Source: a virus
Lineage: Duplodnaviria > Heunggongvirae > Uroviricota > Caudoviricetes
Length of the DNA stretch: 32,625 nucleotides
IMG/VR virus record: IMGVR_UViG_3300028601_000019
Location: 132,130 to 164,754 of that record
Reading direction: 5' to 3' (one strand)
Every line of letters starts with the position of its first letter. Position 1 is the first letter of the stretch. The position numbers and the translations under genes were made by a program. A model generated the notes under the pieces. The model was given only the letters and a program-made list of their open reading frames with translations, searched no databases and was not told the origin of the DNA. Positions 2,984-32,625 of this stretch are shown one piece after another.

Positions 2984-3400
2984 TTAGATATCATCCCAAT
3001 CATCATCTTTAAGTCTTGGGATATCTTTTCTTTCCGTATGATCATGTCTTGATCTTCCACCAGAACCAAGTTTCCCAACATACTTTGTTCCTACTTCAGC
3101 AGCAAAAATAACTGCTAAAAGTTCAGTTAAATATGAGTCAACATGAGCACCAGTAACAACTTGAAAGATTATCAACATTTGAACAAAGATAAAAGAAATC
3201 CCAACCTTTGAAATTCTTCCATCATCTCTACAAATCATTTGATAAAAAGAGACTTTCCCTCTGTTTTTATAAATGGAAAAGAAAACAACCCCCAAAAATC
3301 CAAAAGATAATATAACAATAAGAATTTGATATATCATGAAGAAATCAGCAGGAATCAACATTTGTAAAAAACTTAGAAGTCAAGCAAATTTTTCTCCCAT
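2984..3400 (-). CDS. holin-like membrane protein; in-frame TGA (Trp) at codon 7
   Basis: ATG at 3400 overlaps the endolysin TAA (TAATG) with GGAG SD; reads MGEKFA*LLSFLQMLIP in frame into the tracked ORF; 2-3 TM segments and charged tail. Holin call is inferred from position and topology. Confidence 0.6.
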
Positions 3401-3966
3401 TACAATTTCTCCACATCTCTCCTACACCATTGGATTCTATTAAGCCACCCTTTAATGAATCTATTTTGTGAAGGATTGTTTTGAACTATTTTGAGAAAAA
3501 AGTTCTTTCTCTTTTCAAGAAAAATATCAATGAATTTACTTTCATCTGCTTCTTGTAAAGCGTTGAATGTATTCTTTCCATATGCCCTATCGAACACTAA
3601 ATTATATCCCATCTGAATAAGTGTCTTTTGAAGAAGGCCAGTAGCATTTTTTAATCCATGATTAACAATGGCATCAAAGAAAATAAAAGCCTTCTTATCA
3701 GAATCTAGTTTATCTAATCATGCAATATCCCAAAAATACTCTTTATAAACTTCCAATGCTTTTTCAGAATCTAGAAGTTTGATATCTTCCTTTGTAATCT
3801 GCCCATCATTATCAAGATCAAAAAGATCTAAGTCATTTGTTCCTTTTGCAAAATTAATTGATATCCCGAACTTTGTTGCCCCACCAGCATCTTCTGGAAT
3901 GTCAGTAAAAATATCAAACCCTTCATATTTTAGTGTGTAAACTATTGATTTTTTAAATTCGGCCAT
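3400..3966 (-). CDS. endolysin, glycoside hydrolase 108 + PG-binding_3 type; one in-frame TGA (3718-3720)
   Basis: EG...EDAGGATKFGI, FDAIVNHG, LLQKTL, FIKGWLNRI. Tracked ORFs 3718..3966 and 3400..3612 are the same frame joined through YFWDIA*LDKL. Confidence 0.9.
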
Positions 3967-3970
3967 AAAA

Positions 3971-4003
3971 ATTCCTCCTTATATCTTATTTATAAGGAGG
4001 AAT
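3971..4003 (-). promoter_or_regulatory. late promoter embedded in an RBS-sequestering hairpin
   Basis: Perfect 13-bp stem ATTCCTCCTTATA / TATAAGGAGGAAT containing the AAGGAGG SD; TATAAATA at 3987-3994. Confidence 0.85.
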
Positions 4004-4008
4004 ATATT

Positions 4009-4257
4009 TTAAAAACACTCTACTCCACCACCCTTTGAGCTAATAATTTGTTTTGGATTTCCATCTTTATCCATTACAAATTTATACCCACCAATGCATT
4101 CAAAAGAAGGTTTATCAACATTTCTCGACTTTTGTATTTGTTCTCTTCTCCAATTTGGATCTTTATATTTCATATATTGTGGATATGCTATCGCACATAA
4201 CATTCCTATAATAGCAATAATTATCAAAAGCTCAATAAGTGTGAATCCATTTTTCAT
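4009..4257 (-). CDS. type IV pilin-like protein (prepilin N-terminal cleavage/methylation motif)
   Basis: MKNG|FTLIELLIIIAIIGMLCAIAYPQY; C-terminal Cys pair. Confidence 0.85.
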   Translation of the reverse strand: MKNGFTLIELLIIIAIIGMLCAIAYPQYMKYKDPNWRREQIQKSRNVDKPSFECIGGYKFVMDKDGNPKQIISSKGGGVECF

Positions 4258-4260
4258 AAT

Positions 4261-4554
4261 CTACTCAATCCAAATTTTTTTAAGCTTGTCAATATCAACA
4301 CTGGCTTGTTTAAATGCTTCCTTAATCTTACTATAAACATAATTTGTTTCTACTAAAATATATCCATTTTCTGTGTCCCACGTTCTCCCATTATCACCCC
4401 AATTACCTTCATATTCTGTTCCTTTAAGCTCTTTTTCTAAAGCATCAAGTTCCTCCATAACATCATTAAAATGTTTGGGTGATTCAAATTGAGATTCATG
4501 AACAACAAAAGAACTGCTTGAACTATTTGAAACAAAACAATGTCTAGTTTTCAC
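4261..4554 (-). CDS. FVSNSSSSSF-motif protein (paralog 3)
   Basis: GTG at 4554 with GGAGG SD gives (M)KTRHCFVSNSSSSSF. Confidence 0.8.
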   Translation of the reverse strand: MKTRHCFVSNSSSSSFVVHESQFESPKHFNDVMEELDALEKELKGTEYEGNWGDNGRTWDTENGYILVETNYVYSKIKEAFKQASVDIDKLKKIWIE

Positions 4555-4930
4555 TTTTATATCCTCCTGCATTTGTAACAAACGCTGTTAGTAATTCATC
4601 ATAATAAGCAACATTACAAAGTATGACACTTTCGTTAGTTTTCAAATGTTCTAATACTTCATCATACAATTCTTTAATCCAATCTGTTTTTAATAGATCT
4701 TCTAATGTGCTTCCACCCCATGGGGAATATCTTTCCCCAATAAATTCTTCAAGGTCTTCTTTGCTTCGTATTTCTGCCTTCAGTTCTGACTCCCCATATC
4801 CATTTCTAAACTGGTTAATTAATGCATAAACATCATATTCAAGAGTAAATTTTTGCTCCTTGTCTTTAATAGGGATGATGAAGCTACTACTTGAACTATT
4901 AGAAACAAAACCATTTCTAATTTTACACAT
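4544..4930 (-). CDS. FVSNSSSSSF-motif protein (paralog 2)
   Basis: MCKIRNGFVSNSSSSSFII. Confidence 0.8.
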   Translation of the reverse strand: MCKIRNGFVSNSSSSSFIIPIKDKEQKFTLEYDVYALINQFRNGYGESELKAEIRSKEDLEEFIGERYSPWGGSTLEDLLKTDWIKELYDEVLEHLKTNESVILCNVAYYDELLTAFVTNAGGYKSEN

Positions 4931-4932
4931 AC

Positions 4933-5393
4933 TTAACCCCCAATATATTCATAAAAATTTGAATATGTTTCAAATCTTTCTTTTAGAGAGCTTAATACAA
5001 TATCATCTGTTAGATTGTTTTGTTTAAACACATATTCGATATATTCATAATCATACAACTTCTTTCGACGCTTGTTAACTGCTTTAATTTCTGCAAATAC
5101 AATATCTCTAGGAATCCCATATTCTTTTAGTAAAAATCTCGCTAATTCTGATTGTGAATATTCTTGAAACTGACAAATAGGACAATGCTTTTCAAGAACA
5201 AAATTTTCACCATCTACTTCTTCAATTCCATTTTCTGTATTGATTAGGTGCTCATTACAAAAAAGATGCTCATGCTCACACATTACAAATCCAATTTCAT
5301 CTATAGACATATCGTAGCCTGTTTCAGCATGGCCACAAATTTCACAAATAAAGCTACTGAACTATTGGAAACAAAACCATATCTAGTCTTCAT
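4933..5393 (-). pseudogene. FVSNSSSSSF-motif protein (paralog 1) with Cys/His clusters, frameshifted in the Ser run
   Basis: ATG 5393 MKTRYGFVSNSS then frame change to SSFICEICGHAETGYDMSIDE, joining tracked ORF 4933..5310; 4 nt short relative to the neighbour's AGT TCA AGT AGT AGC. Confidence 0.7.
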
Positions 5394-5715
5394 TTTGACC
5401 CTCCAAAACAGTAATTAAAGTGTTGACTGCAAACAGTGATCTTTCAACATCATCAATAGATGGACCTATTAAAATACTATTTAAATAGTCTCTCATGTTT
5501 TTCAGATTTTCAATGTCAGATTCTTGAACTAATGCAATAAGAGCATCCAATAACTCTTCAATTGTCATTTCAAGTTTTTCAATTTTTAGAGCAGCCTCTT
5601 CAAGTAAATCAGCAATCCTATCAGGCTTACCTTCCTCAACAGACTTTCTACCTTTAGCATTTCGCCTAATCTTTGCCCTTGTACATAGTCTATAAGTTAG
5701 CGATTCTTCATTCAT
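5383..5715 (-). CDS. hypothetical phage protein
   Basis: RAKIRR...RKSVEEGKPDRIADLLEEAA; GGAG SD. Confidence 0.75.
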   Translation of the reverse strand: MNEESLTYRLCTRAKIRRNAKGRKSVEEGKPDRIADLLEEAALKIEKLEMTIEELLDALIALVQESDIENLKNMRDYLNSILIGPSIDDVERSLFAVNTLITVLEGQNED

Positions 5716-5726
5716 TTCATATTCTC

Positions 5727-6005
5727 CTACAAAGATAAAATTTCTTGTTCTAACTGGTCCATATAAGAAACATGAACCAAAATTATATGATTAATTATTT
5801 CAAGATTCATATCCGTGTTATAATTACCATCTGTAAAACAATGATCTGTGCAGAGGCCAGAACCATCAGAGTATTGTTGAAACAAAATACCAGATTCCCA
5901 ACGTTCTATTTTCTCTCTCATTTCTTTAAGAATTTTAAGATTGGTTTTGAATTGTTTTAGCTCTTCAAGGGCTTTAATGGCCCTATCTCCATTTTCAATT
6001 TTCAT
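5727..6005 (-). CDS. hypothetical protein
   Basis: AGGAG SD; operon packing. Confidence 0.7.
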   Translation of the reverse strand: MKIENGDRAIKALEELKQFKTNLKILKEMREKIERWESGILFQQYSDGSGLCTDHCFTDGNYNTDMNLEIINHIILVHVSYMDQLEQEILSL

Positions 6006-6007
6006 TA

Positions 6008-7102
6008 TTATTCTCCTGTAAGCTTATACATGGGGCAGTTTCTACCATTCCAAAGGAGCTTGTTTCTAAACGCCTTTGTTCTTTCGTGGAACCAAATATC
6101 TTTAATGAAGTCTTCACAATCAAGAACTGAAATTCCAGTTTGCCATTCCTTTTCTTCAGCACAGAATGAACAAGGATAAAAATCTCCATGAGTATCAATA
6201 TAGACCGAGAAAGCAGAACTCTCGCACGGATCACTCATTTGAAAAAACTGTTTGTAGTTAGGATGATCTTTTACTGCATTAAGCCAATTTCCGCAAGAAC
6301 AACTGTCAAAACCAAAAGTAATTTTGCTATCAAGAAGAAGATCAATCATCCCCTTAAATTGCTTTGAAGAAGCGCAATCAAAGCCTTTGCCTCTTCCTTT
6401 CTTCTTAAGAGCAAGAAATACAATAGCATTTAGCTTTGAAAGACGTGGATCAGTCTTGATGTCATTTATAATTTCTTCTGTTGTATGAATGTTCCCGGCA
6501 TGATAACAACGGTGGATATTCACCTGGGTCATTCCACGATCCGTGAGCTTCTTAACTGAATCATAACAAAGATCCTTATTGTCATATAATGAGACAGCAC
6601 ATGCACCAGCAATAGAAGCAATCTTATCCGCTACTTCATCAGAAACATCAGCAATGGTTAGATTAGGAATAACACCATTTTGTCTTGTATATTCAAAAAT
6701 ATTCCACATATCAGGATTCGAAGTTCCTGTTGCATCAATACCAAAAGCAATCTGACCAATAGTCTTAGGAAGTTTTTCAAAAAGTTTCTTATATGTTTCA
6801 AATGTCATATAAGTGCCATCTAAGGTATTGGATTTATAACAAAAATTACATGGGACATTCATGCCCTTATCGTTTCTTGGACCATGACAAATAGTTGTAA
6901 TTTCTATGTCAGCAATCAACGGTCCATAAGGAGAATATGTAGGATCATCTTCCTTATTCTTTCCCCATGTCATTGACAACCCAGTTTCCTTATCAAAGAA
7001 GTGATTAAAACACCCATCCTTTGAGCGAATGATCTTTGTCTTTTTCCTATCTACCAATAATGCCTTATCATTTGAATCTGTTCCGAAAATTTCCTTAATC
7101 AT
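6008..7102 (-). CDS. radical SAM enzyme with C-terminal SPASM/twitch-like domain
   Basis: DIEITTIC-x12-CNFCY (expanded CxxxCxxC), GACAVS, C-terminal CESSAFSVYIDTHGDFYPCSF...CPMY. Confidence 0.85.
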   Translation of the reverse strand: MIKEIFGTDSNDKALLVDRKKTKIIRSKDGCFNHFFDKETGLSMTWGKNKEDDPTYSPYGPLIADIEITTICHGPRNDKGMNVPCNFCYKSNTLDGTYMTFETYKKLFEKLPKTIGQIAFGIDATGTSNPDMWNIFEYTRQNGVIPNLTIADVSDEVADKIASIAGACAVSLYDNKDLCYDSVKKLTDRGMTQVNIHRCYHAGNIHTTEEIINDIKTDPRLSKLNAIVFLALKKKGRGKGFDCASSKQFKGMIDLLLDSKITFGFDSCSCGNWLNAVKDHPNYKQFFQMSDPCESSAFSVYIDTHGDFYPCSFCAEEKEWQTGISVLDCEDFIKDIWFHERTKAFRNKLLWNGRNCPMYKLTGE

Positions 7103-7393
7103 TTTATTTCCTCTTACATTTGTAGAACAAAAGTTCTTTTGGTTACTTTACCAGAATGGTCTTCATCCTCATCAACTTCCAATGAATGAATAGAAAAATT
7201 TTCAAATTCTCCATATCACCAGCATATGATTCAAAAACAACTTCTCCATCACCCTTTGAAAGAACTTCTTCCATGAGAAGTGAAATCAATTTACTTGCCT
7301 TCATCATAACCTAACCTAAAATCCAACTCTTCCATATAACGGGCTTTAGAACTGCGCTTGATGGTCTTCATGATGTTCTCCAATTTGATTAAA

Positions 7394-7442
7394 TTGTTGT
7401 TTTGTTAAGATCAGAATAACAAATACATAAAGAATTGTACAC
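7394..7442 (-). promoter_or_regulatory. early-type promoter with conserved leader (copy 3)
   Basis: GTGTACA-N17-TATTCT-GATCTTAACAAAACAACAA. Confidence 0.7.
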
Positions 7443-7495
7443 ACTTATTTTAAAATTTAAAATTAATAAAAGCAAATACTTAGTATAAAAATGCA

Positions 7496-7612
7496 AAATC
7501 TCACAAAAACTAATATAAATATACATCATTTTTGTGAGATTTCTATAAAAATCTTCTAAGTTATTAAGCTAATTAAATAAACTAAGCAATAGCAAAGTTT
7601 CTAAGTTATTAA
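7496..7612. repeat. AT-rich non-coding region with a 14-bp inverted repeat and a 14-bp direct repeat
   Basis: AAATCTCACAAAAA (7496-7509) / TTTTTGTGAGATTT (7529-7542); TTCTAAGTTATTAA at 7554-7567 and 7599-7612. Confidence 0.7.
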
Positions 7613-7617
7613 TATTA

Positions 7618-7986
7618 TTACATATTCTTAAAATCAAGATTTTTCGGAAGATTATAATATTCATCAATTAACTTATCTATTTGATCTACGGCATCTATCC
7701 AATTTTTATTAGAAATATCGTGCTTAATTTTAACAAGACTATCTACCAAATCTCCATACAAATAATTCCCCAATCTATCGGAAAGTTGTTTTGCAAAATC
7801 TTCTTTTCTCTCTGCCATTGAAGAAAAGTCACTAAATAACTGAATTCTTAATCTATATCTATTAAGATAGTAACACTCAGTATAATTTTTAATATCTGTG
7901 TTTAATTCCCAACCACATGGATATTTTAAAAATTTTTCTTTGTTATTTGGGTCTAAGATAATTTCTAGGTGTTTAAGAATATTCAT
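7618..7986 (-). CDS. hypothetical protein
   Basis: ATG overlaps upstream TAA; GGGAG SD. Confidence 0.7.
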   Translation of the reverse strand: MNILKHLEIILDPNNKEKFLKYPCGWELNTDIKNYTECYYLNRYRLRIQLFSDFSSMAERKEDFAKQLSDRLGNYLYGDLVDSLVKIKHDISNKNWIDAVDQIDKLIDEYYNLPKNLDFKNM

Positions 7987-8201
7987 TAAATAGTTTCTCC
8001 CTTAAATTGCATATCACAAAATTCTTCCCAGTTTTGTCCATTTTTTTCAATTTGAAATTGGGCCCCTTCATAAAGTTTTATAAGTGCTTTCATAGGTATA
8101 TGAAAATTTGTTTCAGATTCATCTGTAAAATCAACACCATATGACATTGGTGAAAACCTTATAACATCATCAAGAAATATTCTGTTTTTATAACTTTTCA
8201 T
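7986..8201 (-). CDS. hypothetical protein
   Basis: GAGG SD; operon packing. Confidence 0.7.
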   Translation of the reverse strand: MKSYKNRIFLDDVIRFSPMSYGVDFTDESETNFHIPMKALIKLYEGAQFQIEKNGQNWEEFCDMQFKGETI

Positions 8202-8481
8202 TTATTACCTCTTCATATGAAATATTATTAGAAACCATAAAGGAAATAAGTTCATAAATTTCTTTACCGAATCTCACAATAAGTTCATCAATAACAAAGT
8301 CATTCAATAAAATTCTTTTAAGATAAGAATCTGGATAATTCATAGTAGCAATGTTGTAATGAGAGTCAATATATTCATAGAAAAAATCATCAATTGGGGT
8401 CCAACAATCTTTACCACCTTCAAGTAGTGAATAAAGCTCTAATTGATTAGCTGTGACCACAACATCATTATAAGTAAACAT
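8188..8481 (-). CDS. hypothetical protein
   Basis: Operon packing; GGGGA SD. Confidence 0.7.
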   Translation of the reverse strand: MFTYNDVVVTANQLELYSLLEGGKDCWTPIDDFFYEYIDSHYNIATMNYPDSYLKRILLNDFVIDELIVRFGKEIYELISFMVSNNISYEEVINEKL

Positions 8482-8491
8482 AATACATCCC

Positions 8492-8722
8492 CTACTTTAT
8501 ACTGATAAAAATTAGAATAGAAAGAATAAGATAACCAATACTACGCATAACACCATAACTCTTAATCTTCTTGCCTTCAAGAAGAAGTTTTAACTTTTCA
8601 ATATCCTTATTCTTTCCTACTTCATGATCATACCAAAGAGAAATTCCAGCAACTAAACGAAGAGTAAAGAACGCCATCGCAACCCCAGTACCATATTTAA
8701 AAAACATAATATAATCAAACAT
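8492..8722 (-). CDS. small membrane protein
   Basis: Two hydrophobic segments; GGAGAGG SD. Confidence 0.65.
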   Translation of the reverse strand: MFDYIMFFKYGTGVAMAFFTLRLVAGISLWYDHEVGKNKDIEKLKLLLEGKKIKSYGVMRSIGYLILSILIFISIK

Positions 8723-8967
8723 TTACCTCTCCTGTGGGGCAAGCTGAATGTCAATGTTGGCTGGTATAATTTATTGGTCAATCATCTCATAGAAAAACTT
8801 CTCACGGGCTTCACCATAAGATTTGGCAATAATTACTGTAGTCCGCCGCCGCGCTTCAGCAGTATCCCAATACCACACATCATATTCACTTTTCATTTTA
8901 ATATCCTCTTGGTTAAATTGTTTGATAGAGTTATGATATTAAAAAATTTAGCGATTGTAAACAAAAA

Positions 8968-11520
8968 TTAAAAGAAAAAATTTAAAGTTTCTGTGTTAAG
9001 ATCTAATAGTGAAAGTTTGTCACATGGTTCTAGCAGCATACTAATCTTTTTAATGAAGAATTTTTCAATCATCTTTTCAACATCTGGCTGAACACATTTT
9101 AGCTCTTTTGGATATTTGGATGAGTAAGTAAGAGTTTCAAAGCCATAAGAGTTTTGAAGCAGATAAATGACTTTTGCTTTTTCTCCTTCAATGATGTCCT
9201 GGTATTTGTCCTGTAATCCAAACTTGTTAATGAGAACATGATGGGCATATACGCCCTTTACATGCCATGGTGCACCCTTTAAAGGACCATCCTTTCCAAT
9301 GTATTTGTTAATATTATTGACACCAATATTTGCTGAAATATCTTCAATTGGAAGATCTCTAATAGCTTTTTTATATTCAATAATTTTAGCTCTAATGACA
9401 GAATCTTCCTCATTTTTAAGAATACATGTCATGACATCTTTTAACATTGCTTTGATTGGTTTTGATGTTTCGGATCTAATAATATCTAGACCTGTTACCT
9501 TAACCTTATCAACAGTCTTTCCTTCTTCATTAATGATCCAACAACCATATTTTTTCTTTTGAACCAATAAAATGGATGGACATACAATCTCTTGTTTCCA
9601 GTTAATTGTATAATCTTTTTCTTGAGAAGCAAAATGATGATTTTGAATTATATTAAAAGAGTACTCATTGATGACACTTTCAATCTCTTTACATAACTTA
9701 AGAATAAAATTTACTTTTTCTTTGTTTGATTGCAACGAATTAAATTTGCTCTGTAATTTTGAACAACTATTAATATATTTTCCAATTCCCAGAAACATAG
9801 AGTCAGTATCTTGATATAATACAAAATCTAAATTTTCAGTTGTTTCCTTATTAAGATAGTCATTAATATATGTTGCGCTGTTTTTTAAAATATGTCTGCC
9901 ACATGATGTAATAGCTTCAGCAATTCTTAGATTATATAATCTAAAATATGGTGTAGAAATAGCGCCATATAAGCTGTTAAGTATACCAACTTTAATGGCT
10001 AACTGAGTAGTTTCAAGTTCTGCAATTCTATTTTTATCTCCATCTTCTTTTTTTAATTGCAGCATTTTATCTTTTGTATCTTTTCTCATTTTAAAAAAGA
10101 TTTTTTCAATAATAGTTACAACACCAGGCTTTGTATTTTTAAATATAGATCCATTCGGGGCAATAGAAAAGGTTCCTTTTTGCAATAATGTATTAAAAAT
10201 CTTTAGTTCTTTTCCTTCTAATGTTTTAACTTCTTTATCAGGATTCTCTAATGAAATCTTTGGAAATTCTCTTTTAGATGTATATTCAATAACTTCATGC
10301 TCAGGAAGATTAACAATGCACCCAAAATAAGTCTCTGGACTCATATTTAAAGTTATCATATTATGTGGATACATTGAAGTAACGTCAAAATCAACTACCC
10401 ATTCATGTAGTCCTCGCTGAGGTTCTTTAACAAATGCTGCTTCAAACCATTCTGTTTTGCCGCCCTTAAGCTTAGGAGCACAAAGATTATTTCTTCTATA
10501 ATATGTTAAGAAAATGCCCTCAAGTACATTGGTAACTTTATCATAGAATTTCATTGGACATCTTGAAATCATACTAATGGTTTGAATAAGGTATAAGTAT
10601 TTTAGTTTTTGTTCTAGTTTATAAATAAGTTTGACGTCCTGAATATTATAATCGATATACGTCTCCCAATCATTTTCATAAAGCTGTTTTAACGTGCCAT
10701 CATATTCTAATTTTCTTTCTTTAAGCTCATTAAAAGCAATTTCATCAAGTTTATATGATTCAGGATTGGATCTTGTATATCCTTTATAGATCTGCATATA
10801 ATCAAGAACAGAAATTCCAGCAAAGTCAAAGTTTAGTCCAGTATCATCTTTCTTTTCCCAAACTGAATACTCCATAATTGGAGAAAACTTTTTAAAAATT
10901 TTATTATTTTCACCAAAAAGCTTTTTACATCTATAATAGAGATATGGAATATCAAATCCTGAAATATTCCACCCTGTTAAAATATCAATATCTGCTTGAG
11001 AATACATGTAGTTGAAAAATTCTGTTAATAAAATTTCTTCTGTTGAGCAATACACAAAATTCTTTCTATGTTTGCCAATATATGGTTTAATACCCCAGGT
11101 TTTACATGACCCATTAACATCAAGTGAAATAGCTGTTACAATACCTTCTGCTTCTTCAGGAATCGGAAACCCAGATTCAATATGACACTCAATGTCAAAA
11201 CTACCAATTCTAAGATCTGGTCTATATAAAGAATCATCTGGAATTCCATGATATCTTTCAGCAAGAAACTGAAGTTCTGGTTTTACATGATCCTCGTATT
11301 TTTTGATAGATTTTTCTTCATTAAATGTTTTGTACTTTTGATAATTTTGAAATTCAAGTTTCTTAACAGGAACATCATCAATACTTCTAATAACGCCTTC
11401 TTTATCTGGAACAAAAATATGGGGAACCCAATCAATCTCTGTTGATGTGCGTTCCCCATTTATTGTTTCCCAAAGGGTAATTTTGCTTGCTCTATAATCG
11501 AAATGAACATTTCTAAACAT
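8968..11520 (-). CDS. gp43: family B DNA polymerase (T4 gp43-like)
   Basis: ExoI FDIE, ExoII GWNISGFDIPY, ExoIII YNIQDV, motif A DFDVTSMYP, motif B KVGILNSLYG, motif C YQDTDS, KKKY. Confidence 0.95.
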   Translation of the reverse strand: MFRNVHFDYRASKITLWETINGERTSTEIDWVPHIFVPDKEGVIRSIDDVPVKKLEFQNYQKYKTFNEEKSIKKYEDHVKPELQFLAERYHGIPDDSLYRPDLRIGSFDIECHIESGFPIPEEAEGIVTAISLDVNGSCKTWGIKPYIGKHRKNFVYCSTEEILLTEFFNYMYSQADIDILTGWNISGFDIPYLYYRCKKLFGENNKIFKKFSPIMEYSVWEKKDDTGLNFDFAGISVLDYMQIYKGYTRSNPESYKLDEIAFNELKERKLEYDGTLKQLYENDWETYIDYNIQDVKLIYKLEQKLKYLYLIQTISMISRCPMKFYDKVTNVLEGIFLTYYRRNNLCAPKLKGGKTEWFEAAFVKEPQRGLHEWVVDFDVTSMYPHNMITLNMSPETYFGCIVNLPEHEVIEYTSKREFPKISLENPDKEVKTLEGKELKIFNTLLQKGTFSIAPNGSIFKNTKPGVVTIIEKIFFKMRKDTKDKMLQLKKEDGDKNRIAELETTQLAIKVGILNSLYGAISTPYFRLYNLRIAEAITSCGRHILKNSATYINDYLNKETTENLDFVLYQDTDSMFLGIGKYINSCSKLQSKFNSLQSNKEKVNFILKLCKEIESVINEYSFNIIQNHHFASQEKDYTINWKQEIVCPSILLVQKKKYGCWIINEEGKTVDKVKVTGLDIIRSETSKPIKAMLKDVMTCILKNEEDSVIRAKIIEYKKAIRDLPIEDISANIGVNNINKYIGKDGPLKGAPWHVKGVYAHHVLINKFGLQDKYQDIIEGEKAKVIYLLQNSYGFETLTYSSKYPKELKCVQPDVEKMIEKFFIKKISMLLEPCDKLSLLDLNTETLNFFF

Positions 11521-11543
11521 TTTAACCTCTTAAATAAAAATAA

Positions 11544-11590
11544 AAATAACATAGATGAGTTATTATGTAAACAATTCATCTATGTTATTT
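11544..11590 (-). promoter_or_regulatory. long hairpin (terminator-like) overlapping a probable polymerase promoter
   Basis: About 18-bp inverted repeat AAATAACATAGATGAGTT / AATTCATCTATGTTATTT; GTTTACA in the loop, then N17 and TATTTT. Confidence 0.55.
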
Positions 11591-11596
11591 AATTTA

Positions 11597-12274
11597 TTAG
11601 TTATTTTGTACTATATCTAGTTCTTCTACAGTATTAAATGACCGGGCCTTTTCAAAGTCAATCTCAATGATATTACCATCAATAAGATGATAATTAAAAA
11701 TGTCAAGAAAACTAAGTTCTTGACCTTTCTCATATTTAAAACGAGTAACCTTAATAAGTTTCTTTAGTGCAGACACAACATCTCGTTTCTTAAAAAGAAA
11801 TAATGACATATCATGATAACCAAGACCAGACGTATCATCGCCCAATTTTGAAAACAGAATAGAAGTAATTTTTTTATCTTGTGTCTCAATTTTAACATAT
11901 GGATCTTCTTCAACAACTACTGGCATTAAAAAGGATCCATCATAATTTTCTAAACAGGTTTCAATTACTTTAGATGACTGTATTGAGTCTCCCCAAGAAA
12001 GGAAAATTGTATCTGAACCTTTAATAGGAAGCTCAAGTAATGATGTTAAAGTTGCTTCACCACAACCATAGCCAGACTTAATTGGTACAATTTCAAAATG
12101 GGGATTCTTAAACTTGGAAAAGAAAACAACATTTGAAAAAGAACACATTACAAAAATCTTATCAACCTTTCCCTTGTATGCATTGATGTTTTCATTTAGT
12201 GCATAGATACCTTTTGGAATGTTTGATTTGAATCGTGTTTGATTTCCAGCGGCCAAAATAATAGCATATTTCAT
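11597..12274 (-). CDS. sugar-phosphate nucleotidyltransferase (NTP_transferase, GT-A fold)
   Basis: AIILAAGNQTRF...PK, LSWGD, SFNTVEEL. Confidence 0.85.
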   Translation of the reverse strand: MKYAIILAAGNQTRFKSNIPKGIYALNENINAYKGKVDKIFVMCSFSNVVFFSKFKNPHFEIVPIKSGYGCGEATLTSLLELPIKGSDTIFLSWGDSIQSSKVIETCLENYDGSFLMPVVVEEDPYVKIETQDKKITSILFSKLGDDTSGLGYHDMSLFLFKKRDVVSALKKLIKVTRFKYEKGQELSFLDIFNYHLIDGNIIEIDFEKARSFNTVEELDIVQNN

Positions 12275-13986
12275 TAATAACCACCATTAAGTAATTTAAG
12301 AATTAAATTTGTTTCTTTAATAGAGTCCACATTAACTACTGTATCGCATTGCTTTGAAATTCCTGCATCATTTCCAGATTCACATTCATCACCAATATAT
12401 AAACACTTTCTAAAACTATATTGATCTAAAATGAACTTCTTACATGCATTTTTCGGTGTTATATCTATGCTGGTTGTTCCTGTAACTGTAGCAATACAGT
12501 TAATATCATTATTAAAAAAATACACATTAAGGTGCTTAGCAAATTCCTTGCGATATGTATCACTCAACGGTTTAATATTCACACATGTAATAATATCTCC
12601 AGTTCCTCTTTCAGTAAGTTTGTCACCAAGCCCATGCATTCTTAGATATGCTTTAATTTTAATTAAATTTTCAAGAGAAATACTCATAATATGATTGTAG
12701 TATAAATCATCCTTATAACATATAAGACCACCATCTGCCCAAATATCTATATTTTTATGTTTGCCAAATCTATTTCTAATGTGACTATACTTATTTCCTG
12801 ATGTAATAACAACCTTTTTGTGTTTAGATAGACGTTTAACCAATTCAGCATTTTCAAGAGAAATAAAATTTAAATAATAATCATGTTTTCTTGAATAAAT
12901 TGTATCATCAAAATCCATAAAAACAATATCTTGATCTTTAAGATTATAATAAAGTGAGTAAATTGCAGTAGCTAATAATTCAGGATTATGTTTGCCCTTA
13001 TTATTTCCCATAGTATAAAATACACTAGAATCTTTATATGATGGGTTTACAATTCTCATAGAAATATTAGCATCATTGTTAAAGAGAAAGATTGCATTAT
13101 TTAAATCAACATATTTAGATACTGTTTTAATAATATCTGCACTATTGATTCCTTTCATATCTTTATCTTCTTCATTATTAACTACAAAAATTTTCTTTCC
13201 TGTATACTCTGCAACGATGTTCTGAAATTCTGTATTTTTATATGTTGGAATTAGTGAGCTCCATTGGGTACCGGAACTAAAAATAAGAAGATCTGTTTTT
13301 TCTAAAATAAGCTCTTTGACTTTTGGATTGAGGAAATAATAATGACTTTGTGTACACTCAAGATCAATATTGTAGAAGAATACATCTTTAATTTCAATTT
13401 CTTGGTTATTTAAATCTACAATTGATCCTTCATCCATAAGTATATTCTTTGTTGTATGAGCTCTAAGTACAAGATTCTCAAATGAATTTATAACAATATT
13501 ATCTTTTAAATTTAAAAATTTTCTAAAAAATTCTGCCGCTCTCTCTTCCTTATTTGGATAATTCTCGTAATAAAGGAAGACGCCTCCATATACAATGTTA
13601 GCAATGGAAAAATCCTTAAATTCAAAATTCTTTGGAACTCTTTCAAAAAATAATTCTATAGCATTATTAAAAATAGAAAGATTCCATTCTAAAAGAATGT
13701 TCTTTACACATTCTTTAGGATTATCTTTTGGAATGTCAAATCTCTTTTCATAAAAATCAAGAATATTTTGATCATGAACATTTTTATTTGTTAAATACTG
13801 CACATAATGATTCTTGCGAAGATCAGATGGTCCCAAACAAGTACAAATTTTTCTTACATCGCCAGTACTTTTTCCATCATCATACATGTTTATAAGATTG
13901 GTAATCTTGCAATCAGGATAAAGAGACTTAAGCCCCAATTGCAATTGAACTGATCCAGATCCACCAGACAAAATAGTTATATTCAT
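12274..13986 (-). CDS. CofD/YvcK (UPF0052)-like domain fused to a HAD-IIB phosphatase/phosphomutase domain
   Basis: N-terminal LSGGSGS, DDGKSTG..R, PSDLRK, SGTQWSSLIP; C-terminal FMDFDDTI, ITSG, GTTSIDITP...K, YIGDECESGND. Confidence 0.85.
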   Translation of the reverse strand: MNITILSGGSGSVQLQLGLKSLYPDCKITNLINMYDDGKSTGDVRKICTCLGPSDLRKNHYVQYLTNKNVHDQNILDFYEKRFDIPKDNPKECVKNILLEWNLSIFNNAIELFFERVPKNFEFKDFSIANIVYGGVFLYYENYPNKEERAAEFFRKFLNLKDNIVINSFENLVLRAHTTKNILMDEGSIVDLNNQEIEIKDVFFYNIDLECTQSHYYFLNPKVKELILEKTDLLIFSSGTQWSSLIPTYKNTEFQNIVAEYTGKKIFVVNNEEDKDMKGINSADIIKTVSKYVDLNNAIFLFNNDANISMRIVNPSYKDSSVFYTMGNNKGKHNPELLATAIYSLYYNLKDQDIVFMDFDDTIYSRKHDYYLNFISLENAELVKRLSKHKKVVITSGNKYSHIRNRFGKHKNIDIWADGGLICYKDDLYYNHIMSISLENLIKIKAYLRMHGLGDKLTERGTGDIITCVNIKPLSDTYRKEFAKHLNVYFFNNDINCIATVTGTTSIDITPKNACKKFILDQYSFRKCLYIGDECESGNDAGISKQCDTVVNVDSIKETNLILKLLNGGY

Positions 13987-23264: not shown

Positions 23265-23275
23265 TTAAATTTTTA

Positions 23276-23770
23276 TTAAAAAGGACCATCACTAAAGCTT
23301 TCTAAAGATTCCTTATTATGATCATGTATATCAAGCCATGTATAAGGAAGACCATCAACACCAACAGGCTTATTATAACGATTATCTAATACAAAATATT
23401 GATCACCAATTTCACACAAAAGAACTACATGTCTTTCGCCAATTTCAGTTATACATTTTGCAACATGAAGCCTCTTCTTATTCCACCCAATTGAAATTAA
23501 CTTTGCCATTTTGGTCATTGCATAATCATCACAATCTCCCTTCCAATCAAAAGGAAAAGCTACCCAGTTATCTTCACCTTCTGGTTCTGCTTCAAAGATC
23601 ATCTTTTCATTAACAAACCTATTAACCATTTTAATTTGCTTATAATCTCTCCTATCTTCATAGGAAAAACCATTTTTGCTTGATTCAACAATAGGATAAT
23701 TGTTTTTTCCTGCACAAGCATTTAAAAAAACACACAAACTAATGATCATAATAAAATGTAAAGTTTTCAT
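23276..23770 (-). CDS. transglutaminase-like cysteine peptidase (BTLCP/C93, LapG-like) lipoprotein
   Basis: VN, DNW, GDCDDYA..K, HVVL, VLDN; lipobox LNAC after a hydrophobic signal. Start is ATG 23770; the longer tracked start runs through tRNA-Ala. Confidence 0.85.
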   Translation of the reverse strand: MKTLHFIMIISLCVFLNACAGKNNYPIVESSKNGFSYEDRRDYKQIKMVNRFVNEKMIFEAEPEGEDNWVAFPFDWKGDCDDYAMTKMAKLISIGWNKKRLHVAKCITEIGERHVVLLCEIGDQYFVLDNRYNKPVGVDGLPYTWLDIHDHNKESLESFSDGPF

Positions 23771-23797
23771 CTTAAATCCATTTGTTAATTGTTGTTT

Positions 23798-23872
23798 TGG
23801 TGGAAACAAAGGGAATTGAACCCTTCCAGTCGGCTTGCAAAGCCAACTCGCCCCCTTGGTACATGTGCCGCC
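23798..23872 (-). tRNA. atypical tRNA-Ala(UGC) with encoded CCA
   Basis: TTGGC-TTTGCAA-GCCGA; AAGGG-TTCAATT-CCCTT; weak acceptor stem GGCGGCA/TGTTTCC. Confidence 0.7.
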
Positions 23873-23891: not shown

Positions 23892-24568
23892 CTATATACC
23901 AATAAAGTTATTCAACTTTTCTATTCAATCTTTTGTATTATTGAAGAAGTCTTTTCATTCTACACGCATAACTTCCCAACCATTTTCTTCTATACATATA
24001 TCTTTTCTCTTATCTCTTTCTCGATATTCTTCAAATCTTTGATGTTGTTCCCCATCAATCTCAATACACTTTTTTTATGTTCTCATGCAAAATCTAAAGA
24101 ATATATGGATAGAGAATACTCTCGTATATATTCTTTATCATCAAACTCATTTTGTATTACCAACATAAAAAACTTTTCAGGGTATGACGCATCATTGTTC
24201 CAGCGTGACTTTCCTATATTTCACGCTCTTCCCTCTTTATGCGCTTTCTTCATAGAAAAAGATATCTTTCTTTTGGTATCATCAGGAAGTTTTTTACCTG
24301 TTCATGGTGGTATTATATCACCGTTTTTACATCTTTCCTTGTATAAAAGTCCACCCCGTGCCACTCTTTCATCACTATCTTTTGTTAAACCACGATTTCA
24401 TCCTTTCTTGCCTAGTGTGGGTTTCTGTTTTCTGCCTTCTTCTGTGTGTACTTTTCATATATGTGAACAAATACCCATCTTTGAATATTCTTTACCACAG
24501 TATGGACATTTATATTTTCCTGTTTTAATATTTATCCAATTTTCTTCTCGTTTAATTTTTATACTCAT
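23892..24568 (-). CDS. homing-type endonuclease (Zn finger + NUMOD-like + DUF559/Vsr-like domain); 7 in-frame TGA and a 1-nt frameshift at an A7 run
   Basis: CPYCGKEY..HI*KVH, KG*NRGLTK, P*TGKK, RA*NIGKSRWNN, SYPEKFF, YSLDFA*EHKK then shift to CIEIDGEQH..RD..KD..NGWEVMRVE*KD; TATAAATA at 24574-24581. Confidence 0.8.
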
Positions 24569-27602: not shown

Positions 27603-28646
27603 ATGTCTATAGATATTTATTCAATTCTTTCATCAATTCCACACAATCCGCATTACTTAGAAAGATATATCAAATTCATCAAAGGATGTAAACAGAAAAA
27701 TCTCATTCTTGAGGGGTATTCTGAATATCACCATATTTGCCCAAGAAGTCTATTTCCTAAATATGAATCTTTATCAAAGAACAGATGAAATGGCATACAT
27801 TTAACAGCAAGACAACATTTCATTGCTCATTGGATATTGTGAAAAACTTACAAATCTGCAAAAATGTGCTATGCTTTTATGATGATGTGTAATTTTAAAA
27901 ATCATAAAATATCTTCAGTGGTTTATGAAAAGTTGAAAATTAATAACTCGTTGCATACTTCTAAAAGAACTTCTGGCGAAAATAATCCTATGCATGGAAA
28001 GAATCATTCAAATGAAACTAAACAAAAAATTAGTAAAAGCAGATTAGAAGTTATATTGATAAATAATATACAAATTACAAAAGCCAAATTTTATCGTTCA
28101 ACTTGGGAATATTCTGATGAGTATCTACGAAAATTATCTATCAGAATGTCTGGGTATAACAACCCATCAAAAAATCCAAATATTCTTCAAAAAATTAGAA
28201 ATACCAAATCATCAACTTTTATTGATGGGAAAAATTTGGACTCGATCGGCACTGAACGAGCAGCCGATACTATGAAAAAAGAATTTATAAATGAATCTGG
28301 TGAACACACAACAATATATAAAGAAAATGGCAAAAAACTTTCTAATACTTTGTTACAGATTGAAAGTAATGGAAAAACAAAGGCATATAACAAAAACAAA
28401 TTAATCCATGAAAAATTAAGACAAAAAGGTAAATGATATAAAGTAAAAAACGTATTTGATTCAACATATGAAGAAATTTTGGCTGCGGCAGAAGTTAGAA
28501 ATATTAGTCCTGGACTCGAAAAATGCACAAAAGAAAAATATTTAGGAAAATCTGAATATGGTAAAACTATGTTTAGAATTAAAAATAAAGAACATCTTAT
28601 AGGATTATATGTGGAATTAATAGAAGATCCAAGTATTTTGTGTTAA
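27603..28646 (+). CDS. HNH homing endonuclease with NUMOD3-like motif (347 aa), three in-frame TGA
   Basis: EYHHICPRS...NR*NGIHLTARQHFIAHWIL*KTY; GENNPMHGKNHSNETKQKIS; KGK*YKV; one frame from ATG 27603 to TAA 28646. Confidence 0.88.
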
Positions 28647-29347: not shown

Positions 29348-29442
29348 ATTTTACTCCAAATCAAAATATTCTTTAGATTCATTTTTCTTTGAAGAACATT
29401 GATGTTTTAATGAATTTTTCATTGACTTCCTCTTAATTTGAA

Positions 29443-30723
29443 ATTTAGTCAAAAACAAAATTATTTTTCTATAAATAGATATATAATATTAAAATTAGGT
29501 TGTAAACAAATGATTAGATCATCCAAGCACATTTTGAAGTATCAGACTGGTTCCAAGACGAAAGTCTTGAACCAGCTCTTTGACGACTTCAGAACAGACT
29601 TGTCTTGGTACATTGATCTGATCATTTCTGGAAAATTGCCACTCACCAAGTTTATGTCTTCCAAGGACCTGCCTTCAGGGATCATTTCTCATTCCCAATG
29701 GAAACAAATTCTATACAAGACAGCATCTGAAATAGTCAGGTCTCAATACAAACAAGCATCTAATAGACGATTCAAGCACTACAAGAAACTATTTCATAAG
29801 TGTATTACTGCAAATAAACATTGTTCTTTCACTGGCAAAAGATTTAGTGAATTGAACCTCAAGCCAATTCATCAATCAAAATTCTTTAGTAAGCCAGATT
29901 TGAAGAATTTTTCAATCACACTAGATTCAAGACTGATTGACTTTCAATATGGTCTGCATTTCGATGAATTTGTAAGAATCAAGACTCCATTGTTTCACGA
30001 GCATAAGAAACGTGCCATTACAATCAATATTCCAATTAAACATCATAAGCATAGTAGAAAATTCGATTCTTGGGAAAGAAAGAACTCAGTTCGATTGACA
30101 CTAAAGAATGGGGTCATGAATCTTGAATTGATCTATGAGAAAGATGCACCAGCACTAAAGACTCAGGGCTCTGTTCTTGGAATTGATCAAGGCTACAAGA
30201 AACTAATGTCATGTTCTGATGGAACATTTCTGGACTCCGAGATGGAATCAATCTATAAATTCATTTCAAACAAAAAACAAGGCTCCAAATCCTTCAAGAG
30301 AGCGCTGGTTCATAGAACAAATGAAACGAATCGAATTTGCAATTCACTAGATCTTTCTGGTGTCAAAGAGCTTGTGGTCGAAGACCTCAAGAACCTAAAA
30401 CATAAGACAAAATTGTCAACAAATTTTATGAACAAGATGCAGCGCTGGGTTTACCCAGCAGTATTAAGCAAATTGGAATCCTTGGCTGAAATGAACGGTG
30501 TTCATTTCACTAAAGTGAATCCTGCTTATACTTCGCAGACGTGTTCTAATTGCGGATGTGTGGACCCTGAGTCTCGCCAAGGCGAAGACTTCAGGTGTCT
30601 TCACTGTGGCCATGAAATTGATGCTGACTGAAATGCATCAATCAACATTGCCCGTTTGGGAATTTATAGTTCCCAAAGTCCAAAAAGCTAATTTCATTGT
30701 TCTTCATTGAAATTAGTAACTAT
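29443..30723 (+). mobile_element. non-autonomous TnpB-only element (IS200/IS605- or IS607-derived)
   Basis: No transposase; opposite strand to flanking genes; 3' hairpin CTAATTTCA/TGAAATTAG; removing 29443-30723 restores a 54-aa minus-strand ORF. Ends are inferred. Confidence 0.7.
29510..30691 (+). CDS. tnpB: RNA-guided endonuclease TnpB (393 aa), one in-frame TGA
   Basis: RuvC-I LGIDQG, RuvC-II VVEDL, PAYTSQTCSNCG, CLHCG, RuvC-III DAD*NASINI; TATAAATA at 29470-29477. Confidence 0.92.
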
Positions 30724-30810
30724 ATGCACATGCAGGGCAATCAATTTCTAGCAATGCTATTTCTTCTACAACATCTTCAATGTAGTCGTTTATCATAATG
30801 CTTCTCCAAT

Positions 30811-30837
30811 AAAAAGAAGGGGAACTTAATCCCCTTC
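30811..30837 (-). terminator. intrinsic terminator
   Basis: GAAGGGGA / TCCCCTTC stem plus T5 on the minus strand. Confidence 0.7.
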
Positions 30838-30839
30838 CA

Positions 30840-31322
30840 TTAACGAATCTTTACCAAAACTCTTACATGAAGTCTCTGGATATTATATCCACCGGCAAGA
30901 ATTGTTTCTATTTCGATGTACTTTGTTCCCTTATCTGTGTTGATGATATAAGTTCCATTATAACCATCAGAAGTCTGACTCCACTTTTCTTCAAGAACCT
31001 CAGTTACTTCTACCTTGGAAAGCTTGTTTGCAATTGAAAGATTTCTCTTCTTTGCTGTTACTTCACAATTCTTGGTCATCATCTCAAGAATATCTGCTTC
31101 AGATCTTCCATCAATCATATTGTACCAACCCTTACCACCAGCAATAGCATGAAGCTTTTCATACTTCTTCCAAAGATTCATGCCCTTAACTTCATCAGAA
31201 GCATAAAAACTTCTAATAGCATCTCGGCGTTCAAGGATCCATCTCTTAGAATCTTCGAGAATCTTTTCATCGATAGGAGCAAGGATTTCTTCAAGCTTTG
31301 TAATGATGGAGTTAGTAGACAT
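30840..31322 (-). CDS. conserved-looking phage early protein of unknown function
   Basis: C-terminal IETILAGGYNIQRLHVRVLVK; follows promoter copy 4. Confidence 0.8.
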   Translation of the reverse strand: MSTNSIITKLEEILAPIDEKILEDSKRWILERRDAIRSFYASDEVKGMNLWKKYEKLHAIAGGKGWYNMIDGRSEADILEMMTKNCEVTAKKRNLSIANKLSKVEVTEVLEEKWSQTSDGYNGTYIINTDKGTKYIEIETILAGGYNIQRLHVRVLVKIR

Positions 31323-31329
31323 TTTGTTT

Positions 31330-31390
31330 TCCTTGGTTATTTTGTTGTTGTGTTAAGATCAGAATATAAAAACAACCAAGGAATGTACAC
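31330..31390 (-). promoter_or_regulatory. early-type promoter with conserved leader (copy 4)
   Basis: GTGTACA-N17-TATTCT-GATCTTAACACAACAACAA. Confidence 0.7.
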
Positions 31391-31408
31391 TACTTTTTTA
31401 ATTAAATT

Positions 31409-32625
31409 TTAACTTTTGTTCTTTTTGTAGTAGATGTGGTCCTTAATTTTTTGTTTACAATAGTTTAAATTGTAGTCCTCACCGTCTGAAGATCAAATTT
31501 TTATTAAATAAAATCCTCTATTTATAGCATGAGCAGTCTTTTTCATATCTTTGTGATACACGGTATTAGAATCTTCTTTTGAGAACGGAGATTTCCACAT
31601 ATCCCATTTTTCTTTGTCTTCTTTTAACCACTTCGGGTTTGGATGAAAGGCCTCCCCATTATATTCTATAATGATTTTGAATTTTGGAATAGTGAAATCG
31701 TAAAAATATATTTCTTGATCCCGTATAAACCACTCCGTACTTCCCTTTATTCCCACATAAATTTCATCAAATGTACAAATTTCTTCTTCTAACAACCAAT
31801 CCATTAATGGAAAGAACACATTCATTGATTCCTTTGATGCATCATTGAAGTTTACTTGTGATTTTTCTATTCATAAAAAGTATTTTTCTTTACCTTCCTT
31901 CTCACCATACTTATCTATGAAAAAATTTAGATCATGTGAACACCCATCACAGTACTTTTTATATTTTTCTTTACCTTCCTTCTCACCATATCTTTTAATA
32001 AAATTCTCTTGTGTGTTTCCATAACTTTTACAATTTTTATTGTATAATTCTGTTCCTTTATCTTCACCATATTTGTTAATATAGTACTCAAGATTCCCAT
32101 TGCCTTTAGTGTTTTTGGATATATTTTCACATCTTTTATTATATAAGTTCACCCCTTCTTCTTCTCCATATCTGGCAATAAAGGACTCCTTAGAGGTTGA
32201 AGATTTTTTACAAATTTCTATATATTTTTTAGTCCCTTCTTCTTCACCAAGTTTTTCAATTTGGTATTCAAGAGTGCCCTTTCCCTTGCGACCTTTTGAT
32301 ACATTTTCAGAAAATGTATCAAAACGTATAGTACCCTCTTCCTCTCCATATTTTTTAATGAAGTTTTCTAAAGATGGACAGGGCTTTCCTTTAACAGATT
32401 TAGAAATATTTTTCTTTCTTTCTAAATATAATCTATTTCCTTCTTCTTTGCCATATCTAATTTCATAAAACTCTATTGTTGATACTTTAGTGTTATTACA
32501 TATTTTGCAAATTTTTTTATATTCGAAATTCTTTGGATCAAATTCTGTAAAATTTTCACAGTTGCTCATTGAGCAACAATTTTCATCATGTTTCAAAATA
32601 AAAGCATCATAATACTCTTTTAATG
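31409..32625 (-). CDS. Hef-like homing endonuclease with KYGEEEG repeats and C-terminal Vsr/DUF559-like domain; 5' end outside window; two in-frame TGA
   Basis: About seven (K/R)YGxEEG repeats; YFL*IEKS joins tracked ORFs 31871..32596 and 31493..31825; SKES, FYDFTI..IIIEYNGEAFH, D..K, IKI*SSD to TAA at 31409. Confidence 0.85.

Follow-up and report, generated by a model that had tools for sequence, protein, structure and literature searches.

Tryptophan-coding TGA and its uneven use in a T4-like phage, a candidate for stage-dependent recoding

Phages that read an in-frame stop codon as an amino acid have been described in several settings. Recoded phages of standard-code hosts have in-frame stops in 26-71% of their genes and code-25 phages of code-25 hosts in about 90%, a suppressor tRNA is detected in 35% of code-4 genomes, and TGA stops are lost at low GC (Borges et al., bioRxiv 10.1101/2021.08.26.457843). 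Phage genomes with a dual-readable early block and a code-4 late block were found with Mgcod by Pfennig et al. (bioRxiv 10.1101/2022.06.29.495998), who report the suppressor tRNA Sup-TCA in 3 of 17 complete code-11/4 genomes and TGA as 80-90% of the tryptophan (Trp) codons of code-4 bacteria. Sup-TCA was present in 11 of 73 predicted code-4 phages in the work of Cook et al. Here we describe TGA as a Trp codon in a T4-like phage, starting from a window of 32,625 nucleotides that comprises bases 132,130-164,754 (the last 32.6 kb) of one 164,754-bp contig with 31.0% GC (IMG/VR record IMGVR_UViG_3300028601_000019). A sequence-only reading of this window had proposed that TGA is reassigned to Trp only in late or lysis, nuclease and gp32 genes, through a temporal switch of the genetic code.

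The phage resembles the 'Agate' and 'Jade' phages of Borges et al. in that TGA encodes Trp, is concentrated in structural genes and is sparse among replication genes, and in its low GC content, its apparent loss of TGA stops and its large virulent genome. The 'Agate' and 'Jade' phages come from human and animal guts, whereas this phage is known from landfill-labelled runs only. 'Jade' carries a module of tRNA, tryptophanyl-tRNA synthetase (TrpRS) and release factor 1 (RF1), none of which was found here. These three are a typical rather than a universal trait, with a suppressor tRNA(UCA) in 15-35% of code-4 phages. Unlike in 'Agate' and 'Jade', lysis genes are not specially enriched in TGA in this phage, and a third of its replication and transcription genes, including that of the late sigma factor, carry the codon.

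As in the genomes of Pfennig et al., TGA serves neither as sense codon nor as stop in a likely early block, another block needs code 4, and in-frame TGA codons align with TGA or TGG in relatives. The contigs of Pfennig et al. derive from human metagenomes, with many crAss-like phages among them, and fall into two clean blocks, whereas the split here is graded (0, 18, 53 and 71% TGA). Stop-codon reassignment in a large virulent phage is also known from crAss-like phages (Yutin et al., PMC7886860), but these are podoviruses of Bacteroidota with opal or amber reassignment, and the present phage is a T4-like myovirus. Phages of code-4 and code-25 hosts (Mycoplasma, Spiroplasma, Absconditabacteria, Gracilibacteria) likewise have in-frame TGA and need no suppressor of their own. 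Code-25 phages have TGA, read as glycine, in about 90% of their genes, in contrast to 34% of genes, a TGA-free block and a Trp reading here, and, as a further difference, the host of this phage has a cell wall and lipoprotein export.

Block-wise code-4 phages, mostly without suppressor tRNAs, are thus already published, and this phage is a T4-like case of that class. It shares with other T4-like phages (Straboviridae, Kyanoviridae) the core genes, the late promoter TATAAATA(G) and many homing endonucleases. T4 itself keeps to the standard code, in which TGA ends translation. The titles and abstracts that we found in the literature report no T4-like code-4 phage, which is not proof of absence. 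With this case, block-wise recoding of TGA to Trp reaches a T4-like lineage from outside the gut, and because the early, middle and late programme of T4 is the best understood of any phage, claims about timing become testable for each gene. Neither the near-complete genome nor any of eight related contigs has a tRNA(UCA), which also makes the lineage a clean case for asking how most code-4 phages decode UGA. For annotation, the consequence is that 79 of 233 genes come out split or truncated under table 11, including those for terminase, portal, sheath and baseplate.

TGA as a tryptophan codon

The gene model of the contig takes TAA and TAG as the only stops and ranks the resulting open reading frames (ORFs) by a codon log-odds score, for which long table-11 ORFs served as the training set. 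It holds 233 genes with 216 in-frame TGA and 422 TGG codons. TGA occurs in 79 of these genes (34%) and makes up 216 of the 638 Trp codons of the contig (34%). Contig coordinates are used for the TGA-free block and for positions outside the window; those of the genes in Table 1 are window positions.

Codon alignment with the relative G002, a 133-kb contig with about 66-93% nucleotide identity to the phage contig, extends over 27,392 codons. It includes 106 TGA codons of the contig, of which 59 face TGA and 43 face TGG in G002 (102 of 106); CTA, TTT, TAT and CAT are each found once, and GGN is never found. In the other direction, 217 TGG codons are aligned, with TGG in G002 at 174 of them and TGA at 21. 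Protein alignments point to the same residue. Five TGA columns of the large terminase hold Trp in 99, 116, 102, 108 and 77 of 120 homologues, the last figure belonging to the terminal TGA of the gene, and glycine occurs in at most 2 of 120 rows at the terminase TGA columns listed. Two further TGA codons lie in an intein-like insert of the terminase, one with Trp in 18 of 26 non-gap rows and the other without a clear residue. In the HNH homing endonuclease of the window, which was compared with 149 representatives, Trp is the commonest residue in each TGA column (130/149, 66/149 and 13/56 non-gap rows).

The terminase gene (contig 6448-8439, minus strand) has an insert of about 150 amino acids that is absent from 94 of the 120 homologues and contains two of its seven TGA codons. 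Intein and LAGLIDADG Pfam domains appear in the annotation of some of these homologues.

Within the window, 12 of the 20 TGA sites examined have an aligned codon in a relative. The codons in G001 and G002 are all TGA or TGG, and those in G004 are TGA three times, TTT once and AAG once. For the GIY-YIG gene, the reading was compared by codon with relatives only. Alignments to structures in the PDB do not decide individual sites, since the TGA site of the gp55-like protein faces Phe in T4, that of the gp41-like helicase faces Met beside a Trp, and the gp32 sites fall outside the aligned core.

A reading of TGA as glycine (code 25) or selenocysteine, or of the interrupted genes as broken pseudogenes, can draw on a single exception. 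The TGA site of TnpB is Leu in both of the bacterial or archaeal metagenome-assembled genome (MAG) homologues that reach it. This reading is refuted for the bulk of sites and we give it next to no chance, because no aligned TGA faces GGN, Trp is the commonest residue in eight of the ten terminase and HNH columns examined (the other two being those in the insert), and coding signal is present on both sides of the TGA at 216 sites in 79 genes. The codon alignment, the terminase columns and the HNH columns agree, and on these sequence comparisons we regard the assignment of TGA to Trp, which the sequence-only reading had favoured over glycine, as settled.

The same reading had observed that every credible gene ends in TAA or TAG. 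This holds for all 232 complete gene models (TAA 177, TAG 55), a closure that is built into the model. Less circular indications come from the positions of TGA within ORFs, which are not enriched towards the ends (46, 50, 48, 37 and 35 by quintile), and from the terminal TGA of the terminase, where 77 of 120 homologues have Trp. There is no sign of stop use anywhere on the contig, which indirectly suggests that TGA is not a stop codon in this phage. Cover by ORFs of at least 100 amino acids rises from 74% to 91% when TGA is a sense codon; the cover reaches 94% when TAA is freed, so that by itself it says little. The base that follows the codon differs weakly between TGA and TGG (chi-square p = 0.018), too weakly to argue for context-dependent readthrough.

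Uneven use of TGA along the contig

A minus-strand block at 114.4-149.2 kb (35 kb, 61 genes) contains 2 TGA and 153 TGG codons, so that TGA accounts for 2 of 155 Trp codons there and for 214 of 483 (214 TGA, 269 TGG) in the rest of the contig (Fisher 1e-29). The two exceptions sit in the holin-like and endolysin genes. This depletion is specific to Trp, because other pairs of codons that end in A or G are used nearly equally in the block and outside it. For the two-codon pairs examined, those of Lys, Glu, Gln, Leu and Arg, the A-ending shares in the two parts are 0.64 and 0.69, 0.79 and 0.83, 0.75 and 0.77, 0.63 and 0.72, and 0.82 and 0.86.

Gene classes differ as well. TGA makes up 53% of the Trp codons in genes for virion structure and packaging (73 TGA, 66 TGG; 22 of 33 genes carry it), compared with 18% in genes for replication, recombination, nucleotide metabolism and transcription (20 TGA, 90 TGG; 12 of 32 genes), a difference with a Fisher value of 2e-8. 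The share is highest, at 71%, in homing endonucleases and TnpB (30 TGA, 12 TGG; all eight genes). Genes with no known function have 0% inside the block (0 TGA and 118 TGG in 54 genes) and 41% elsewhere (91 TGA, 130 TGG; 35 of 103 genes). The strong class bias that had been proposed is therefore present, and TGA is not evenly spread. The restriction to late or lysis, nuclease and gp32 genes describes the window accurately but fails over the contig, where the 12 replication-type genes carry the codon. The special place given to lysis genes also fails, as these have 2 TGA and 6 TGG (25%; two of three genes).

The gp55-like late sigma factor is among the additional carriers, with TGA as its sole Trp codon; the others include the gp41-like helicase, UvsX, a UvsW-like helicase, PhoH, dUTPase, a dCMP-deaminase-like gene, two exonucleases and nrdD. 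Both major capsid genes lack TGA (0 of 7 Trp codons), as does one tail-tube gene, and in a tail-fibre cluster at 78.7-82.4 kb all 14 Trp codons are TGG. The absence of TGA from the major capsid genes is consistent with TGA being decoded less well than TGG. A strand effect can be set aside as the cause of the block, because minus-strand genes at 43.5-52.6 kb have 21 TGA and 10 TGG. G002 shows the same uneven pattern in a less strict form.

It is also conceivable, though very unlikely in our judgement, that the spread reflects expression level or gene ancestry, in which case TGA would persist in genes that are weakly expressed or long resident and be lost from those that are highly expressed or recently acquired. 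The TGA-free capsid and tail-tube genes would fit this, as would the tail-fibre cluster, given that tail-fibre genes are often swapped between phages. The richest class, the homing endonucleases, would fit too, since such genes are expressed at a low level in T4. The block itself argues otherwise. Its 61 genes are mostly small and of no known function, and it is unlikely that all of them are highly expressed. A recent import of the block was rejected, because its divergence from G002 (66-80% nucleotide identity) equals that of the remaining contig. Finally, the DNA polymerase gene is vertically inherited and nevertheless has 11 TGG and no TGA.

Decoding, timing and host

We put the probability at roughly one half that the phage infects a standard-code host and delays the decoding of TGA, a stage-dependent recoding in which TGA is kept out of a likely early block. 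The 34% of genes with TGA lies within the published 26-71% and thus fits recoded phages of standard-code hosts. Under delayed decoding, the genes of the TGA-free block would form the early class, readable from the start, and the synthesis of TGA-bearing proteins would wait until the infected standard-code cell can decode TGA. The gp55-like factor, gp32, the gp41-like helicase and UvsX would all need this decoding. If TGA is unreadable when infection begins, the gp55-like factor, whose only Trp codon is TGA, could not be made, and any switch would have to precede late transcription. We therefore infer a switch earlier than the sequence-only reading had thought, before late transcription and not together with it. 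The weakest step is the decoder, which would be host tRNA-Trp(CCA) reading UGA by C:A wobble after an early phage function weakens release factor 2 (RF2), or else a decoder that current tRNA finders miss.

Promoter sequences bear on the timing in part. The T4-type late promoter consensus TATAAATAG precedes terminase, portal, capsid, sheath, GIY-YIG and other units, in line with the proposal that many TGA-bearing units lie behind a late promoter. The exact motif TATAAATA has 12 copies in the window compared with 5.3 expected, a number reached in 0 of 100 shuffles, and copies lie upstream of the endolysin, GIY-YIG, gp32, 192-aa and HNH genes. Over the whole contig, exact TATAAATA is not enriched (28 and 16 copies compared with about 33 expected per strand), and it is weak as a class label because long structural operons have few copies. 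A sigma-70-like promoter scan of the structural region gave a chance result, with 128 found and 120.3 expected.

A search for a decoder on the contig gave no candidate of a known kind. ARAGORN predicts seven tRNAs, namely Arg(cct), Met(cat), Pro(tgg), Thr(tgt), Tyr(gta), Leu(caa) and a doubtful Ala(tgc), with no tRNA-Trp among them. As the sequence-only reading had stated, no UCA tRNA is predicted in the window; the wider search that it had proposed for such a tRNA, TrpRS or a release factor found none over the contig. Looser ARAGORN settings (lower thresholds, introns, mitochondrial mode) gave 103 to 972 noise calls and no credible UCA tRNA. Over all 164.7 kb, Rfam found no further tRNA, whether at the gathering score or at E <= 0.5; the looser limit returned only chance-level extras and a weak tmRNA-like match. 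Six-frame searches with the Pfam models RF-1, PCRF and tRNA-synt_1b had no match on the contig, and the same searches had matches in 11, 12 and 14 of 14 control genomes, respectively. No UCA tRNA was predicted in eight related contigs either (G001-G004, L076, L079, L081 and L082). A specific form of delayed decoding, which we advance only tentatively, would have an early protein disable RF2 or retune host tRNA-Trp. The phage would then need no tRNA, release factor or TrpRS of its own, and the late sigma factor and the late programme would be gated by the switch.

We consider it doubtful that the phage encodes a UGA decoder that was missed, either as a non-canonical tRNA-like RNA or as a gene off the contig. 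Undetected non-canonical tRNAs have been proposed for the low share of Sup-TCA in code-4 phages (35% in Borges et al.; 3/17 in Pfennig et al.), and the window contains one tRNA-like element that only ARAGORN reports (23798-23870). The record is linear, CheckV estimates its completeness at 69%, and the contig breaks inside nrdD, with only the N-terminal 229 amino acids present (contig 1-692). The other end (window 32570-32625) lies inside or just upstream of the Hef-like gene. Synteny with G002, however, joins position 1 to position 164,754 across 1,506 bp of G002. This stretch is made up of nrdD sequence (its 3' part) and the beginning of the Hef-like gene, and no tRNA lies in it. Because the two ends are about 1.5 kb apart by this measure, the genome is probably circularly permuted and close to closed, with about 1.5 kb missing from the contig, in conflict with the CheckV estimate. 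The Rfam result and the 0 of 8 related contigs with a UCA tRNA also count against a missed decoder.

The tRNA-like element at window 23798-23870 (minus strand) is called tRNA-Ala(tgc) by ARAGORN with two acceptor-stem mismatches, and the Rfam tRNA model gives no match there. It has a sub-threshold tmRNA match at 23798-23855 (25 bits, E 3e-6) and adjoins a lipoprotein gene. Three related contigs share an identical 93-nt tRNA-like gene (L011:6461-6553, L079:1048-1140 and L081:1327-1419), in which the variable arm is long and the anticodon loop has 6 nt (CUGCAG). ARAGORN cannot assign it, and it has no counterpart on the phage contig. At L011:4840-4914, in the relative G004, lies an arrangement that we take to be that of the UGA-suppressing G24A mutant of E. 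coli (the Hirsh suppressor); it may be relevant to UGA reading in the G004 lineage.

Host clues come from the genes themselves. A Shine-Dalgarno-like motif precedes 171 of the 233 genes, a frequency that is unusual for Bacteroidota hosts. The endolysin with GH108 and PG_binding_3 domains, a LapG-family (BTLCP) lipobox protein and an N-methyl (type IV) pilin-like gene exclude a wall-less Mollicutes host, but they are compatible with a walled code-4 bacterium, for example one of the Patescibacteria family JAKLIH01 (PMC13092985). The TnpB relatives were rejected as host evidence. They lie on three short (about 2-kb) MAG contigs with 48-58% identity and doubtful binning, labelled Woesearchaeota and Peribacteria. 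A word-based protein search with the LapG-like protein found nothing but itself, and no relative of the CCA-adding enzyme was found among the viral contigs searched. The two runs that contain the sequence are labelled landfill metagenome and may be the source of the phage; wastewater runs contain only small shares of it. No RNA sequencing run is listed as containing it.

If the host itself reads TGA as Trp, as for example a walled code-4 bacterium would, then no switch would be needed and the block would have another cause. This would account for the lack of a suppressor tRNA, release factor and TrpRS on a contig that is nearly complete by synteny, for TGA in genes that act before late transcription (gp55-like, gp32 and gp41-like helicase), and for the absence of any sign of TGA stops; many of the predicted code-4 phages of Cook et al. 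share the code of Mycoplasma or Spiroplasma hosts. We nonetheless think such a host unlikely. It leaves unexplained the 2 of 155 Trp codons over 35 kb with other A/G-ending pairs unchanged. TGA is found in 34% of genes and is not the main Trp codon, as compared with the published benchmarks of about 90% of genes in code-25 phages and 80-90% of Trp codons in code-4 bacteria. The endolysin, the LapG-family lipoprotein and the pilin-like gene in addition rule out Mollicutes.

Several observations weigh against delayed decoding in a standard-code host. It is solely by analogy with T4 that the TGA-free block is a likely early gene class. A sigma-70-like promoter scan of the block was at chance (90 found, 86.5 expected), and a k-mer search of its 15 intergenic gaps returned no shared motif. 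Avoidance of TGA in the block is not absolute, as G002 has TGA at 4 of 75 aligned block sites where the contig has TGG, and the essential replication genes that carry TGA blur a simple division into early and late. ARAGORN, Rfam and Pfam found no decoder or switch gene on the contig; if the CheckV value of 69% is right, such a decoder gene could lie off it.

Genes of the window and of the phage

The nine TGA-bearing genes of the window (Table 1) are the nine that had been proposed. Each is whole only if TGA is read through and is split or truncated under table 11, and the Trp-type motifs quoted for them are present in the translations. The count of in-frame TGA codons is 21, not 23. The difference lies in the gene at 23990-24568, for which seven had been claimed, a number that corresponds to all of its Trp codons. 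Pfam gives this 192-aa protein a weak zinc-finger match only, which does not bear out its earlier label of tRNA-Asn nuclease, and the 725-aa protein described as a TerD fusion has no Pfam match. The genes said to use TGG only do lack TGA, including those for the polymerase (11 TGG), the 725-aa protein (7), a radical-SAM/SPASM-like protein (6) and a 401-aa protein (8). The holin-like protein has no Pfam or PHROG match and is named from its endolysin neighbour and hydrophobic sequence.

Table 1. Features of the window, with in-frame Trp codons and aligned codons in relatives
Feature	Window position	Strand	Trp codons	Observations
Window share of the nearly TGA-free block	3..17080	-	TGA solely in holin-like and endolysin genes	RNA ligase, radical-SAM-like, DNA polymerase, CofD-like, beta-glucosyltransferase and 401-aa protein genes
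Holin-like membrane protein, 138 aa	2984..3400	-	1 TGA at 3380-3382 (codon 7), 1 TGG	G002 has TGA at the same codon 7
Endolysin (GH108 + PG_binding_3; Pfam, PHROG)	3400..3966	-	1 TGA at 3718-3720, 3 TGG	TATAAATA at 3987-3994; G002 has TGG at the TGA site
81-aa protein	17081..17326	-	1 TGA at 17225-17227	TGG in G001 and G002, TTT in G004
SegE-type GIY-YIG homing endonuclease (Pfam PF19835)	17611..18084	-	5 TGA, 1 TGG	TATAAATA at 18115-18122; in G001 and G002, 2 of 5 sites TGG, 3 of 5 TGA
gp32 single-strand DNA-binding protein (Pfam PF08804)	18604..19560	-	2 TGA (codons 4, 34), 3 TGG	TATAAATA at 19657-19664; PDB gp32 match over residues 40-242; codon 4 TGG in G001 and G002, TGA in G004; codon 34 TGA in G001 and G002, AAG in G004
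tRNA cluster: Pro(tgg), Thr(tgt), Tyr(gta), Leu(caa), doubtful Ala(tgc)-like	22125..23870	-		ARAGORN; Rfam confirms four
192-aa zinc-finger-like protein (weak zf-Di19 Pfam match)	23990..24568	-	5 TGA, 2 TGG	TATAAATA at 24574-24581; no relative aligned at its TGA sites
HNH/NUMOD3 homing endonuclease	27603..28646	+	3 TGA, 2 TGG	TATAAATA at 27519-27526
TnpB (Cas12f1-like TNB domain)	29438..30691	+	1 TGA at 30629-30631	One of three contig copies
Hef-like homing-endonuclease-like gene	31409..32625	-	2 TGA, 5 TGG	5' end probably beyond contig end; TGA at both sites in G001, G002 and G004; G002 orthologue 434 aa

The phage is a T4-like myovirus by PHROGs and Pfam, with a matching set of T4 core genes, a gp55 late sigma factor and TATAAATA late promoters. 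Matches to the T4 core comprise gp17, 20, 21, 23, 24, 18, 19, 5, 6, 25, 32, 41, 43, 44/62, 45, 46/47 and 55, UvsX/Y/W, Rnl1/2 and beta-glucosyltransferase. Virion genes include those for the large terminase, portal, prohead protease, two gp23/gp24-like capsid proteins, sheath and tube, and the baseplate genes are gp5, gp6, gp25 and gp27-like. For replication and repair the contig encodes gp32, the gp41-like helicase, primase, the gp43 polymerase, clamp and clamp loader, a gp46/47-like nuclease, UvsX, UvsY and UvsW, and its other genes include RNA ligases, the beta-glucosyltransferase and the gp55-like late sigma factor. The gp55-like protein matches T4 gp55 in the PDB, where gp32 and gp41 have matches too. 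Cultured phages are only distant kin, with a best capsid identity of 37.7% to Phage C48C1 (Kyanoviridae), followed by 36.7% to Pelagibacter phage HTVC008M.

Several features point to mobile elements. The gp41-like helicase ORF (contig 100844-102535) ends in residues 365-418, which match the solved 'gp41-1 intein', and next comes a small homing-endonuclease-like ORF with four TGA codons. An intein or a homing-endonuclease element may split the helicase. The three TnpB copies (IS200/605-type; window 29400-30900, contig 5.1-6.4 kb and contig 36.7-38.06 kb) are about 88% identical, and G002 carries one TnpB at 87-89% identity; the gene model missed two of the three because of low coding scores. 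Within the region 26110-28935, the plus-strand HNH gene stands between a full gene for a CCA-adding enzyme (26113-27495) and a 112-aa ORF (28597-28935). This ORF matches the N-terminal part of the CCA-adding enzyme family, as if insertion of the endonuclease had left a duplicated fragment.

Two further genes are of interest for the biology of the phage. The gene for the LapG-family (Peptidase_C93/BTLCP) lipoprotein, whose signal ends in LNAC, lies within the tRNA cluster (window 23279-23770, minus strand). A homologue of the T4 beta-glucosyltransferase (window 13996-15108, minus strand) suggests that the phage DNA may contain glucosylated hydroxymethylcytosine.

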